Shown here: positions 18,465 through 22,432 of the stretch, one piece after another
How the letters are laid out: each line of letters starts with the position of its first letter
Position numbering within the stretch: the first letter of the stretch is position 1
Notes under the pieces: generated by a model
What the model saw: the letters and a program-made list of their open reading frames with translations, nothing else
The model's database searches: none
What the model was told of the DNA's origin: nothing
Source: Escherichia coli
Lineage (GTDB): Bacteria; Pseudomonadota; Gammaproteobacteria; Enterobacterales; Enterobacteriaceae
Strand: one strand, 5' to 3'
Length of the DNA: 64,000 nt
NCBI RefSeq assembly: GCF_013122565.1
Contig: NZ_CP053258.1
Program-made: the position numbers and the translations under genes

Positions 18465-19259
18465 TTGAAAAAACTGAAACTGCATGGCTTTAATAATCTG
18501 ACCAAAAGTCTGAGTTTTTGTATTTACGATATCTGCTACGCCAAAACTGCCGAAGAGCGCGACGGTTATATTGCTTATATCGATGAACTCTATAATGCCA
18601 ACCGTCTGACCGAAATCCTGTCAGAAACCTGTTCCATTATCGGGGCCAATATTCTTAACATCGCCCGCCAGGATTACGAACCACAGGGTGCCAGCGTCAC
18701 TATTCTGGTGAGTGAAGAACCGGTCGACCCGAAACTCATCGACAAAACAGAACACCCCGGCCCACTGCCAGAAACGGTCGTTGCCCATCTCGATAAAAGT
18801 CATATTTGCGTACATACCTACCCGGAAAGTCATCCTGAAGGCGGTTTATGTACCTTCCGCGCCGATATTGAAGTCTCTACCTGCGGCGTGATTTCTCCGC
18901 TGAAGGCGCTGAATTACCTGATCCACCAGCTTGAGTCCGATATCGTAACCATTGATTATCGCGTGCGCGGTTTTACCCGCGACATTAACGGTATGAAGCA
19001 CTTTATCGACCATGAGATTAATTCGATTCAGAACTTTATGTCTGACGATATGAAGGCGCTGTATGACATGGTGGATGTGAACGTCTATCAGGAAAATATC
19101 TTCCATACCAAGATGTTGCTTAAAGAGTTCGACCTTAAGCACTACATGTTCCACACCAAACCGGAAGACTTAACCGACAGCGAGCGCCAGGAAATTACCG
19201 CTGCGCTGTGGAAAGAAATGCGCGAGATTTATTACGGGCGCAATATGCCAGCTGTTTAA
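18465..19259 (+). CDS. speD: S-adenosylmethionine decarboxylase proenzyme
   Basis: Recognised SpeD 264 aa ([18 protein letters not shown]...); TTG start at 18465 after AAGGAGAAG SD. Confidence 0.95.
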
Positions 19260-19261
19260 CG

Positions 19262-19298
19262 GCTCTGGCGGAGCTCCCAGGCTCCGCCAGATTTATTT
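19262..19298. terminator. Bidirectional terminator between convergent speD and yacL
   Basis: Hairpin ctggcggagc...gctccgccag followed by atttattt. Confidence 0.6.
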
Positions 19299-19659
19299 AC
19301 TTCTGCTGCACGAAATTGCGGTAAGCCGCCACGACCTGCAGAAAATCCTCAACGCCGCATAGCGACAGGCTTTCTTCGTCGTAGTAGTTCATCCCCTCTT
19401 CCATTTCATCGCCAGCGAATTCCAGTTGATTGGCGCGAACCATCACCTCTTCACCGTCCATCCACAGGGTGTATTCATGCCCTGCCCGTTGCCAGGACCG
19501 TTCGCTACCTTTCAGTGCGTGCGCTGCTTGTTCCACTTCATCAAGCAAGGCCAGGTTTTCTTTCACCTCTTCATTAAACCAGTGCCCGACCACTTCATGC
19601 CCCATGGACATACGCACCTTTACCACTCCGGTAATATCGCGCAGAAATTCGTAATCCAT
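19297..19659 (-). CDS. yacL: Uncharacterised protein YacL (UPF0231)
   Basis: 120-aa acidic protein [18 protein letters not shown]...; start trimmed to ATG 19657-19659. Confidence 0.8.
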
Positions 19660-19834
19660 AGTGTGTTCCTCTGCTCCCGGCAATGCACCGAAATCGCATT
19701 GCGCCATTGATGTAATTATCGCAGCCTTACCGGAGAAAAACAGCGGAACGGCGATGGTTTAGAAATAAAAAAATGCCCGGGAATCTCATTCACCGGGCAT
19801 TGTGTCGTTTATGCGCAGCGCGTGCGCTGACTTT

Positions 19835-22432
19835 TTAAACCGCAGTCTGGAAAATCACCCCATCGGCTTTCTCGGTGTACTGAGAAAGCTGGTTGAAGTT
19901 CAGATAACGGTAAGTATCAACGGCTGTTTTATCTACCTGCGCCACGTAGGTCTGGTACTCTTCCGGCGTCGGCAGTTTGCCAATCAGCGCCGCAACAGCA
20001 GCCAGTTCCGCAGAAGCCAGGAAGACATTCGCGCCAGTACCCAGACGGTTCGGGAAGTTACGGGTAGAGGTGGAAACCACCGTTGCACCGTCCGCCACAC
20101 GCGCCTGGTTACCCATACACAGGGAACAGCCAGGGATCTCGATACGCGCACCACTCTTACCGAAGACGCTGTAGTAGCCTTCTTCAGTCAACTGTGCGGC
20201 GTCCATACGGGTTGGCGGTGCCACCCACAGGCGGGTCGGCAACTGGCCTTTATGCGCATCCAGCAGTTTACCCGCAGCACGGAAGTGACCGATGTTGGTC
20301 ATGCAGGAACCGATAAACACTTCGTCGATCTTCTCACCCTGTACCGCAGACAGCGGACGCGCGTCATCCGGGTCGTTCGGAGCACACAGGATTGGCTCTT
20401 TAATATCCGCCAGATCGATGTCGATCACTGCCGCGTATTCCGCATCTGCATCGGCTTCCAGCAGCTCAGGATTCGCCAGCCATTTTTCCATGCCCTGAAT
20501 ACGACGTTCCAGGGTACGACGATCGCCGTAACCTTCCGCGATCATCCACTTCAGCAGGACGATGTTAGAATTCAGGTATTCGATGATCGGCTCTTTGTTC
20601 AGCTTGATGGTACAACCGGCAGCAGAACGCTCGGCGGACGCATCGGTCAGTTCAAATGCCTGCTCAACTTTCAGATCCGGCAGACCTTCAATTTCCAGAA
20701 TGCGACCAGAGAAGATGTTTTTCTTGCCTTTCTTCTCAACGGTCAGCAGACCTTGTTTGATCGCATACAGCGGAATGGCGTGTACCAGATCGCGCAGGGT
20801 GATGCCCGGCTGCATTTTGCCTTTGAAGCGCACCAGAACGGATTCCGGCATATCCAGCGGCATTACGCCTGTTGCGGCTGCAAATGCCACCAGACCAGAA
20901 CCCGCCGGGAAAGAGATACCGATCGGGAAACGGGTATGGGAGTCACCACCGGTACCGACGGTATCCGGCAGCAGCATACGGTTCAGCCAGGAGTGGATTA
21001 CGCCGTCACCCGGACGCAGCGACACACCGCCACGGTTCATAATGAAGTCCGGCAGCGTGTGGTGCGTGTTCACGTCAACTGGCTTCGGATACGCCGCGGT
21101 GTGGCAGAAAGACTGCATCACCAGGTCAGCCGAGAAGCCCAGGCACGCCAGGTCTTTCAGTTCATCACGGGTCATCGGGCCTGTGGTGTCCTGAGAGCCT
21201 ACAGAAGTCATTTTCGGTTCACAGTACGCGCCCGGACGAATGCCTTTCACGCCACAGGCACGGCCTACCATTTTTTGCGCCAGCGAGAAGCCGCGATCGC
21301 TCTCAGCGACATCTTTCGCCTGACGGAACACATCACTGTGCGGCAGACCAAGTGCTTCACGCGCTTTGGTGGTCAGGCCACGCCCGATAATCAGCGGAAT
21401 ACGGCCGCCAGCACGCACTTCATCAATCAGCACGTCGGTTTTCAGTTCGAAGGTCGCCAGCAGTTCGCCTGTTTCGTGGTTACGCACTTCACCTTTGTAC
21501 GGGTAAACGTCAATCACGTCGCCCATGTTCAGGTTAGAGACGTCGACTTCGATTGGCAGTGCACCCGCGTCTTCCATCGTGTTAAAGAAGATGGGTGCAA
21601 TTTTACCGCCGAGGCACAAACCACCGCCGCGTTTGTTCGGCACATGTGGAATATCATCGCCCATAAACCACAGAACGGAGTTCGTGGCGGATTTACGCGA
21701 TGAACCCGTACCCACAACGTCACCGACGTACGCCAGCGGGAAACCTTTCTGTTGCAGAGCTTCAATCTGTTTGATCGGGCCAACAACACCTGGCTGGTCT
21801 GGCTCAATACCTTCACGGGCGTTTTTCAGCATCGCCAGCGCGTGCAGTGGGATATCCGGGCGCGACCACGCATCCGGTGCCGGAGAAAGGTCATCGGTGT
21901 TGGTTTCGCCAGTGACTTTGAAGACGGTAACGGTCAGTTTTTCAGCCAGCGCCGGGCGATTCAGGAACCATTCGGCATCCGCCCAGGACTGCATTACCTG
22001 CTTCGCATATTCGTTGCCTGCTTTCGCTTTCTCTTCTACGTCATAGAAGTTATCGAACATCAGCAGTGTGTGAGAAAGTGCTTTGGCAGCGATCGGTGCC
22101 AGTTTGGCATCATCCAGCGCGTCGATCAGCGGATGAATGTTGTAACCACCCTGCATGGTACCCAGCAGTTCGATGGCTTTTTCCGGAGTCAGCAGAGGGG
22201 ATTTGGCTTCGCCTTTAGCGATAGCAGCCAGGAAGCCTGCTTTGACATAGGCGGCTTCATCGACGCCAGGGGGAACACGGTTGGTTAATAGATCTAACAG
22301 GAATTCTTCTTCGCCCGCGGGCGGGTTTTTCAGCAGCTCTACAAGTGCGGCCATTTGGTTTGCATCCAGGGGTTTGGGCGCAATCCCCTCAGCGGCACGC
22401 TCAGCTACGTGCTTACGGTATTCTTCTAGCAC
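19835..22432 (-). CDS. acnB: Aconitate hydratase B (2-methylisocitrate dehydratase)
   Basis: Recognised AcnB 865 aa; GTG start at 22430-22432 ([16 protein letters not shown] read as MLEEYRK...); ORF-track start over-extended. Confidence 0.95.

Follow-up and report, generated by a model that had tools for sequence, protein, structure and literature searches.

The 64,000-nucleotide stretch of Escherichia coli DNA analysed here (the window) is collinear with E. coli K-12 on the reverse strand, corresponding to the reverse complement of ~90–153 kb, and start positions were assigned by mapping 52 K-12 CDS starts onto it. The segment 18465–22432 is bounded by the first bases of the speD TTG and the acnB GTG, well away from secM and panC. 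A sequence-only reading of this DNA had named four genes with non-ATG starts, and mapping confirmed each of them: speD TTG at 18465 (+), acnB GTG at 22432 (−), secM GTG at 46126 (−), and panC GTG at 4982 (+). RefSeq and K-12 annotation agree on these codons, and the PGAP annotation of the closest genome gives identical starts for speD and acnB. A fifth non-ATG start, the murE GTG at 60665 (−), had been omitted. Altogether, the window holds 56 complete gene starts (51 ATG, 4 GTG, and 1 TTG; 8.9% non-ATG), and the genome-wide proportions of ATG/GTG/TTG in E. coli are 83/14/3% (10.1101/063800). Enrichment of non-ATG starts in the window relative to the genome (~17%) was considered and rejected, as no excess is present (5/56; binomial P(X≥5) = 0.97).

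The speD coding sequence (18465..19259, +; 264 codons plus stop codon) encodes the S-adenosylmethionine decarboxylase proenzyme and begins with TTG at 18465..18467, as supported by K-12 and PGAP annotation, INRI-seq, and conservation. Its Shine-Dalgarno sequence (SD), AAGGAG at 18448..18453 (+), is 11 nt before the TTG, a long spacing, and overlaps the speE stop codon TAA (18447–18449). This stop is in frame five codons upstream, and the TTG is the first start codon that follows it. At panC, the GTG (4982..4984, +) is supported by an N-terminal peptide, INRI-seq, and PDB 1IHO, and its SD (AAGGAG, 4969–4974, +; spacing 7 nt) overlaps the panB stop TAA at 4968–4970. The string TAAGGAG is found at both the speE/speD and panB/panC junctions, and speD and panC are the second genes of two-gene operons in which the upstream stop overlaps their SD. 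The murE GTG (60663..60665, −) falls within the final codons of ftsI, 14 nt short of the end of that gene and 4 nt after an SD of GAGGGG; it is supported by a weak INRI-seq signal and by PDB 1E8C/7B53. In speD, panC, and murE, no possible start codon separates the non-ATG codon from the preceding in-frame stop, so these three genes have no upstream alternative. The stop/SD overlaps and the position of the murE start within ftsI make it probable that initiation at each of the three is coupled to translation of the upstream ORF. In vitro, speD and panC are also capable of initiating on their own, as INRI-seq gave peaks on isolated fragments. A dual-frame AUGUG/GUGUG site is absent at panC, where a TTG (4980–4982) overlaps the GTG (4982–4984) to give UUGUG; the study of AUGUG/GUGUG starts (PMC9841429) mentions neither UUGUG nor panC nor the other four genes.

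The acnB coding sequence (19835..22432, −; 865 codons plus stop codon; annotation, PDB 1L5J) begins with GTG at 22430..22432 (−), which is supported by annotation, Ribo-RET, INRI-seq, PDB 1L5J, and conservation. Its SD, GAGGAG at 22440..22445 (−), precedes the GTG by 7 nt and is recognized from sequence and conservation. Mechanical ORF calling adds 51 codons to the gene, giving a 916-codon frame headed by an ATG at 22583..22585 (−; position −153) that is not a start, and further in-frame ATGs occur at −27 and −21. The ATG at 22585 precedes the −35 hexamer of the sole sigma-70-like promoter (TTAACA-17-TATTCT, TG-extended; 22535..22563, −) by 20 bp, and a leader of ~95 nt is predicted from this promoter. 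In agreement with this prediction, Cunningham and colleagues reportedly placed PacnB 95 bp upstream of the coding region in 1997. The extension is not a conserved feature: between species, the in-frame open run upstream of the GTG ranges from 4 to 79 codons, with in-frame stops 4–9 codons away in many species and the nearest at 4–6 codons (Yersinia 5, Citrobacter 6). No Rfam family was matched at positions 17000–23000, where there were two sub-threshold chance hits only. A cis-acting structure sequestering the acnB GUG was also considered, and was dropped because the leader and initiation region are no more structured than shuffles (z = +0.96).

At secM, the GTG (46124..46126, −) is supported by annotation, Ribo-RET, INRI-seq, and conservation, and is preceded by only a weak SD, GGGATGG. 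A scan of its upstream region revealed neither a sigma-70-like promoter nor a terminator pattern. The mechanical secM ORF (221 codons) also over-extends by 51 codons, to a TTG at 46277..46279 (−) that ends a T-run downstream of lpxC and is not a start. The claim that the ORF track over-extends acnB and secM to upstream ATGs is thus accurate for acnB (ATG 22585) and inaccurate for secM, whose extension, headed by TTG 46279, contains no in-frame ATG. This secM extension has diverged and carries indels in four other genera, and sequence conservation starts at the GTG, which is present in 5/5 genera (including Salmonella, Enterobacter, Raoultella, and Citrobacter koseri). In both acnB and secM the additional codons represent non-coding leader; the acnB −153 ATG is upstream of the promoter, and the ATGs at −21 and −27 are within or next to a leader element with complementarity to RyhB, an iron-responsive sRNA.

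Initiation profiling, which had been suggested as a check on these starts, is already published, with peaks at the annotated codons and no upstream initiation site reported. The in vivo Ribo-RET values (Meydan 2019) were taken as tabulated in INRI-seq Table S2. In this table, the acnB GTG has peaks of 412–493 by INRI-seq and 191 by Ribo-RET, and the secM GTG has peaks of 13–20 and 152, respectively; the secM start is also supported by a Ribo-RET snapshot. The starts of speD, panC, and murE have in vitro INRI-seq peaks (speD in 5/5 replicates; panC 149–244; murE weak, over threshold in 3/5 replicates) and no in vivo Ribo-RET peak (value 0). Given the Ribo-RET value of 0 for speD, direct support for its TTG consists of the in vitro peak together with the lack of an alternative start in the ORF. 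Table S2 lists no non-annotated initiation site for any of the five genes, and the acnB test transcript included the ATGs at −27 and −21. Per transcript, initiation in vitro was 0.88 for acnB and 0.90 for speD, versus 0.35 and 0.17 for the ATG neighbours speE and panB. The parallel suggestion of N-terminal proteomics is borne out for panC, for which TRAINSPOTTER N-terminomics found an 11-residue N-terminal peptide starting from the GTG; peptides of AcnB, SpeD, SecM, and MurE are not among the N-terminomics entries listed. The N-termini in PDB 1L5J (AcnB, starting MLEEYRKH), 1IHO (PanC), and 1E8C/7B53 (MurE) match the annotated starts exactly.

For all five genes, homology across species begins at the in-frame GTG or TTG, and each of these codons is retained by 5423 or more of 5426 E. 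coli genomes. We estimate a probability of about 0.93 that the five are true initiation codons, already annotated as such, of ordinary housekeeping genes in E. coli. The codons themselves are already known and represent textbook annotation. At each of them, the SD positions the 30S subunit and initiator fMet-tRNA reads GUG or UUG, yielding a protein that begins with Met. The opposing proposal, that acnB truly starts at the ATG at −153, −27, or −21 and secM at TTG 46279, with the GTGs a convention of annotation, is very improbable and largely refuted: both ORFs are open for 51 codons upstream, and SecM relatives in public gene calls range from 164 to 219 residues, indicating that gene callers sometimes pick upstream starts, but Ribo-RET and INRI-seq peaks fall on the GTGs with no extra site even though the −27 and −21 ATGs were in the acnB test RNA, acnB homology begins at the GTG with in-frame stops shortly upstream in many species, the region upstream of secM is indel-rich, ATG 22585 precedes the acnB promoter, and the 1L5J chain starts MLEEY.

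We then compared how deeply each non-ATG codon is conserved. At the residue-1 position of acnB, GTG is found in 77/80 gammaproteobacterial species, spanning Enterobacterales, Vibrionales, Aeromonadales, and Alteromonadales; ATG occurs in the three others, all of them Pasteurellaceae with a different initiation region. An SD of GAGGAG or GAGGAA precedes the codon in 77/77 of the GTG-bearing loci. Over the same 77 sequences, a single codon is retained in just 1/417 columns with an invariant amino acid, and none of the 41 E, K, or Q columns (G/A-ending codons) is fixed. Within E. coli, the acnB GTG is kept in 5425/5426 genomes, with an ATG variant in none, and the 55-nt initiation region is identical in 5425/5426. 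In Enterobacterales, synonymous sites are frozen in acnB codons 1–8, among them the rare Leu codon CTA. This alignment provides strong evidence that the identity of the acnB start codon is under purifying selection, and its depth of conservation is the one mildly surprising point of the analysis; a literature search found no publication pairing acnB with a GTG/GUG start codon. For speD, TTG is present in 15/15 other Enterobacterales loci (16/16 sequences in all), only 11/193 synonymous codons in the alignment (~5%) are invariant, and 5425/5426 E. coli genomes keep the TTG, with an ATG variant in none. These counts provide moderate evidence that the speD start codon is likewise under purifying selection.

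A scan of metagenomes with a degenerate DNA pattern recovered panC GTG on 77/79 contigs, comprising 30 distinct Enterobacteriaceae sequence contexts, and ATG outside Enterobacteriaceae, on 2 contigs whose PanC is 74% identical to that of E. coli; a PanC protein search gave only E. coli and Shigella variants among the 120 matches listed. The murE GTG is found in 3/3 genera (including Salmonella and Raoultella) and in 5424/5426 E. coli genomes, and the secM GTG in 5423/5426. Selection keeps non-ATG identity to unequal depth, extending over several orders for acnB, Enterobacterales for speD, and Enterobacteriaceae only for panC. The mechanism of selection on the start codons is one that we infer from these patterns, and three explanations bear on it.

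The least probable of the three concerns speD. The UUG and unusually distant SD in E. coli could make SpeD synthesis responsive to polyamines, as in the polyamine modulon, although we regard this as improbable. The modulon genes cya, spoT, cra, and gshA (UUG/GUG; PMC4405209) resemble speD in being regulated genes with an inefficient start, and speD shares one trait with them, a UUG with 11-nt SD spacing. The modulon is defined by a polyamine stimulation of translation that is lost when the start is changed to AUG. For a biosynthetic gene, however, such stimulation would constitute positive feedback by the end product, which is counter-intuitive, and speD is not mentioned in the passages on the modulon in PMC4405209. 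In other Enterobacterales, the extended SD AGGAGGTGA is strong, well placed, and nearer to the TTG than in E. coli.

A second explanation, which we consider possible without favouring it, holds that the non-ATG codons are near-neutral leftovers, with a GTG or TTG and a good SD sufficing and no tuning involved. Genome-wide, start codons are under weak selection, and initiation rates can vary over a considerable range without selective consequence (Belinky et al. 2017, PMC5622118). In addition, the two most distant panC contexts recovered have ATG; acnB, speD, and panC initiate in vitro at levels per transcript similar to those of ATG neighbours; and overlap with ftsI codons also holds the murE GTG in place. 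Against neutrality, the G of the acnB start is kept in 77/77 sequences, versus 0/41 synonymous G/A sites and 1/417 synonymous codons over the same tree, and the speD TTG is kept in 16/16, versus invariance of ~5% of synonymous codons. Since genome-wide switches favour ATG (PMC5622118), some counter-pressure is required for GTG or TTG to be retained for long. The proposal that rare starts mark translationally tuned genes gains only indirect support, from the purifying selection suggested at acnB and speD; however, in vitro initiation at these two genes is not low relative to ATG neighbours, and panC changes to ATG in distant relatives.

For acnB, the counter-pressure may come from RyhB. The octamer GUCGUGCU (−3 to +5; 22428..22435, −) takes in the G of the GTG and is perfectly complementary to RyhB AGCACGAC, and the leader element CAAUGAGAGC (22446..22455, −), which contains the in-frame ATG at −21, is complementary to RyhB GCUCACAUUG, forming a second helix. 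Using the K-12 RyhB sequence, we calculated duplex energies of −25.4 kcal/mol with GUG and −19.6 kcal/mol with AUG, such that the G-to-A change at +1 costs 5.8 kcal/mol. The E. coli acnB initiation region as a whole pairs with RyhB at −24.7 kcal/mol, well below shuffles (−14.4 ± 3.1), through helices of 8 bp and roughly 10 bp. The octamer is found in 61/77 species (Enterobacterales, Vibrionaceae, and Aeromonas loci), and in Erwiniaceae the complementarity of the leader element is perfect (CAAUGUGAGC). Because the frame of the leader element relative to the GTG shifts between species, this element appears to be conserved as RNA and not as coding sequence. These observations are compatible with a tentative model in which the acnB GUG belongs to a frozen RNA element of ~55 nt (−30 to +24) with RyhB arms flanking the SD, the sRNA target site dictates the start codon because its first G pairs in the seed helix, and the leader ATGs serve as anti-CAU pairing sites.

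Published work lends this model some support, in that in-line probing and toeprinting showed RyhB to bind at the acnB initiation region and to prevent 30S binding, and repression of acnB is lost with the RyhB ‘mutstart’ mutant (PMC4150767). The freezing of codons 1–8 at synonymous sites and the restriction of acnB ATG to Pasteurellaceae, with their different initiation region, point in the same direction. Other observations temper it. RyhB pairs with sodB across an AUG start, indicating that sRNA pairing does not generally need GUG. The frozen acnB block runs to +24, past the predicted duplex, and 16 species keep GTG although their octamer is complementary to E. coli RyhB only in part (GCCGUGCU in Shewanella and its relatives, ACUGUGCU in the group around Rheinheimera). 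Unless the sRNAs co-vary in these species, RyhB pairing would not be the sole constraint. We therefore view the dictation of the acnB start codon by RyhB as plausible but doubtful.

Overall, these genes illustrate that longest-ORF or ATG-first rules mis-call real genes, as the SecM entries of 164–219 residues demonstrate. They also provide, in acnB, a clean natural test case for the upkeep of non-AUG starts by sRNA pairing, initiation tuning, or both: acnB is highly expressed and slow-evolving, and theory predicts AUG for such a gene, yet GUG is present in 77/77 of the non-Pasteurellaceae sequences sampled.

Several known systems offer points of comparison. AUU is a far weaker start codon, and infC has a demonstrated IF3 autoregulatory loop. 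The AUU starts of infC and pcnB (IF3 discrimination) are likewise non-AUG and conserved for regulatory reasons, and GUG and UUG initiate at 10–100% of AUG (10.1101/063800). The lacI GTG resembles the five starts described here: more than 99% of E. coli genomes keep it, and its retention has been attributed to selection as opposed to drift (Cherrak et al. 2024, PMC11445065). For lacI, the effects of GTG versus ATG on protein level and gut fitness were measured; lacI encodes a sugar regulator, whereas the five genes encode enzymes or a leader peptide. Genome comparisons indicate that SDs are stronger and better conserved where the start is non-AUG, and that some of the GUG starts of slow-evolving genes are apparently under purifying selection (Belinky, Rogozin and Koonin 2017, PMC5622118). 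Both acnB, with GAGGAG, and speD in most Enterobacterales, with AGGAGGTGA, fit this pattern of a non-AUG start and strong SD. That study covers close genome triplets with a net pull to AUG, and the acnB GUG, held across orders, represents an extreme case that was not singled out there. Finally, the RyhB–acnB system of Benjamin and Masse (2014, PMC4150767), in which apo-AcnB also protects the acnB 3′UTR, concerns the same mRNA region. The terms ‘GUG’ and ‘start codon’ are absent from the text and supplements of that paper, and the link between RyhB pairing and conservation of the GUG is one that we infer here.

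Five genes in the window begin with a codon other than ATG, and these starts are real, correctly annotated, experimentally supported and already known. The window corresponds to ~90–153 kb of K-12 MG1655 in reverse complement; we transferred to it the start positions annotated for 52 K-12 genes and re-read each non-ATG codon in the sequence. Forty-seven are ATG, four are GTG (panC at 4982, + strand; acnB at 22432, secM at 46126 and murE at 60665, all − strand) and one is TTG (speD at 18465, + strand). PGAP annotation of the closest genome gave identical starts for speD and acnB. 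The sequence-only reading had named speD, acnB, secM and panC, and all four codons agree with the mapping and the re-read bases. The interval that it gave, 18465–22432, runs from the first base of the speD TTG to that of the acnB GTG; secM and panC lie outside it, and murE was absent from its list. At the non-K-12 left end, all four fimbrial genes start with ATG, bringing non-ATG starts to 5 of 56 genes (8.9%). E. coli overall uses ATG, GTG and TTG at 83, 14 and 3% (10.1101/063800). Compared with this average (binomial P(X≥5) = 0.97), non-ATG starts are not enriched in the window and are, if anything, depleted.

Initiation profiling had been proposed as the check, and the published data support the annotated starts, with no peaks listed at upstream ATGs. 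Table S2 of the INRI-seq study (in vitro initiation profiling) covers every annotated K-12 start and includes the in vivo Ribo-RET (retapamulin Ribo-seq) values of Meydan et al. 2019. Over five replicates, INRI-seq values were 412–493 for acnB, 149–244 for panC, 35–61 for speD and 13–20 for secM; murE gave 0–7.9, above threshold in three of five. Ribo-RET values were 191 for acnB, 152 for secM and 0 for speD, panC and murE. The INRI-seq table of non-annotated initiation sites has no entry for any of the five genes. For secM, the primary initiation site of the 170-codon ORF was shown by Meydan et al. 2019, and TRAINSPOTTER N-terminomics recovered an 11-residue N-terminal peptide from the panC GTG. 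The same N-terminomics also reported an internal panC ATG start at codon 117 (12-residue peptide). The first residues of PDB chains 1L5J (AcnB), 1IHO (PanC) and 1E8C/7B53 (MurE) match the annotated N-termini exactly; the PDB search returned no SpeD structure. The AcnB N-terminus has reportedly been sequenced, the SpeD proenzyme and subunit sizes are said to fit a 264-residue product, and the secM start was reportedly revised by experiment.

The claim that the longest open frames of acnB and secM over-extend to upstream ATGs held for acnB but not for secM, whose 51-codon extension reaches a TTG (46279) and contains no in-frame ATG. The acnB frame begins at ATG 22585, 51 codons 5′ of the GTG. 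The sole sigma-70-like promoter upstream of acnB (TTAACA-17-TATTCT) lies at 22563–22535 on the − strand, which places ATG 22585 outside the acnB transcript and predicts a leader of ~95 nt. Mapping reportedly placed the acnB promoter 95 bp 5′ of the coding sequence. Two more in-frame ATGs lie at −27 and −21 (relative to the GTG), and the INRI-seq test RNA, which starts at −30, includes both. The leader and initiation region showed no unusual structure (z = +0.96), and no Rfam family matched the acnB region. In speD, panC and murE, an in-frame stop precedes the non-ATG codon, and no other possible start lies between the two. Predicted SecM relatives (query 45617–46126), otherwise 70–99% identical, are deposited at 164–219 residues; this variation indicates that gene callers choose different starts, the over-extended one included.

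Comparison across species argues further against an acnB extension. Scanning species-representative genomes with AcnB yielded 80 loci from Enterobacterales, Vibrionaceae, Aeromonas, Shewanella, Rheinheimera and relatives, and Pasteurellaceae. At the position of residue 1, 77 of these loci have GTG; the other three, all Pasteurellaceae, differ at the N-terminus and carry an ATG two or three codons further upstream. Because the in-frame open run 5′ of the GTG varies from 4 to 79 codons, and because indels between the Shine-Dalgarno (SD) and GTG in many genera displace both leader ATGs (−21 and −27) from the GTG frame, the extension is not coding. As a yardstick, only one of 417 codon columns with an invariant amino acid uses the same codon throughout. 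None of the 41 Glu, Lys and Gln columns, which are synonymous G/A sites, is fixed, indicating purifying selection against A at the G of the GTG. Among 49 Enterobacterales (22409–22461, − strand, −29 to +24), codons 1–8 are nearly frozen synonymously, and all 49 keep CTA, a rare Leu codon; normal synonymous scatter resumes from codon 9. The 55 nt at the acnB start are identical in 5425 E. coli genomes, and a query for an ATG-start variant in E. coli found none. The sequence AGAAGAAUA, at +6 to +14, can be divided into three A-R-N triplets and may be an Hfq-binding motif.

The acnB start also lies within predicted pairing to RyhB, the iron-responsive sRNA. K-12 RyhB AGCACGAC perfectly complements acnB GUCGUGCU (−3 to +5), and RyhB GCUCACAUUG is complementary to CAAUGAGAGC in the leader (−24 to −15), an element that contains the −21 ATG; the two predicted helices flank the SD. 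The calculated duplex energy for the E. coli initiation region is −24.7 kcal/mol (shuffles, −14.4 ± 3.1), and changing GUG to AUG would cost 5.8 kcal/mol. The −3 to +5 octamer occurs in 61 of the 77 species, and Erwiniaceae carry a perfect leader element, CAAUGUGAGC. RyhB was previously found to pair at the acnB initiation region and to inhibit the toeprint, and repression was lost in the 'RyhBmutstart' mutant (Benjamin and Masse 2014, PMC4150767); a term search of that paper found neither 'GUG' nor 'start codon'. RyhB pairing may be one force keeping the acnB GUG. Unless the sRNAs co-vary, it is not the sole force, since GUG is also retained in 16 species whose complementarity to E. coli RyhB is weaker (GCCGUGCU, ACUGUGCU). 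Deep conservation of GUG within a RyhB-complementary, synonymously frozen initiation region is a modest but testable side observation.

The speD TTG is present in all 15 other Enterobacterales loci adjoining acnB (e.g., Serratia, Yersinia, Tatumella), with an in-frame stop 1–5 codons upstream in all but one; 11 of 193 codons with an invariant amino acid are themselves invariant (P ~0.05). The SD is extended in most species (AGGAGGTGA); in E. coli and E. albertii it is AAGGAG, which overlaps the speE stop and lies 11 nt before the TTG. The T is kept in 5425 of 5426 E. coli genomes, among which no ATG variant was found. Codons 16–19 (CTG AGT TTT TGT, 18510–18521) are synonymously invariant in 16 of 16 speD sequences and may reflect local RNA-level constraint. 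For panC, a degenerate pattern for the N-terminal peptide gave 79 usable metagenome contigs, 77 with GTG (30 distinct contexts; PanC 81–100% identical to E. coli). The two with ATG are the most diverged (74% identity), so the panC GTG is only family-deep, in contrast to acnB and speD. At both speE/speD (18447–18467) and panB/panC (4968–4984), the upstream TAA overlaps the SD (TAAGGAG) ahead of the non-ATG start. The panC start sits in TTGTG (4980–4984), where a TTG overlaps the GTG in another frame, and speE and speD share a reading frame, five codons apart.

The secM GTG occurs in Salmonella, Enterobacter, Raoultella and C. koseri; conservation begins at this codon, and the region 5′ of it is diverged and gapped. 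The murE GTG occurs in Salmonella and Raoultella. It lies within the last five codons of ftsI (14-nt overlap, 60652–60665), and the ftsI frame constrains it as well, because GTG to ATG would change an FtsI Gly (GGT) to Asp. The first start-codon base of secM, panC and murE is kept in 5423–5424 of 5426 E. coli genomes.

A 5-kb query around the flagged interval, covering speE, speD, yacL, acnB and yacH, found a match of 95–99.6% identity in 5425 of the 5426 complete E. coli genomes. The fimbrial genes left of panB (1–4100; yad-type usher and subunit) are a rare divergent allele, matched in 53 of 5426 genomes (8 covering at least 80% of the query; best identity 91.7%), whereas the remaining window is 95–99.6% identical to most genomes. 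Most start regions are 99–100% identical to K-12. Divergence is concentrated upstream of lpd (~26135; 119 of 150 nt aligned) and at the starts of cueO (16964) and rpnC (7079), both ~94% identical, and panB (4176; 88% over 90 nt). In yacH, a 96-bp tandem repeat (24146–24407, 2.7 copies) encodes the motif ...SASPEQRQAVRE.MQTNPQIQQRR... and adjoins a His/Asp-rich tract. The gene measures 1854 bp both here and in K-12, against 1758 bp in strain OkiPb01695; the difference is exactly one repeat unit and thus looks like a copy-number polymorphism. Three E. coli records labelled plasmid carry the core chromosomal region with acnB, speD, secM and murE, and the panB/panC junction occurs at 19 plasmid places. 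Mislabelled replicons are the probable explanation, or mobile copies in the case of panBC.

The suggestion that rare start codons mark translationally tuned genes is supported only indirectly. In reporters, GUG and UUG yield 10–100% of AUG output (10.1101/063800), and across the genome selection pulls start codons towards AUG, while non-AUG starts are offset by stronger SDs (PMC5622118). Given that selection, retention of the acnB GUG and speD UUG implies gene-specific counter-pressure. The INRI-seq data do not show that a rare codon simply means low output: initiation per unit transcript is mid-range for acnB (0.88) and speD (0.90; neighbours 0.16–2.2), panC (0.15) resembles panB (0.17), and only secM (0.035) and murE (0.013) are low. 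For the speD UUG, a speculative route would be the polyamine modulon (PMC4405209). The closest demonstrated case of a selected non-ATG start is the GTG of lacI (Cherrak et al. 2024, PMC11445065).
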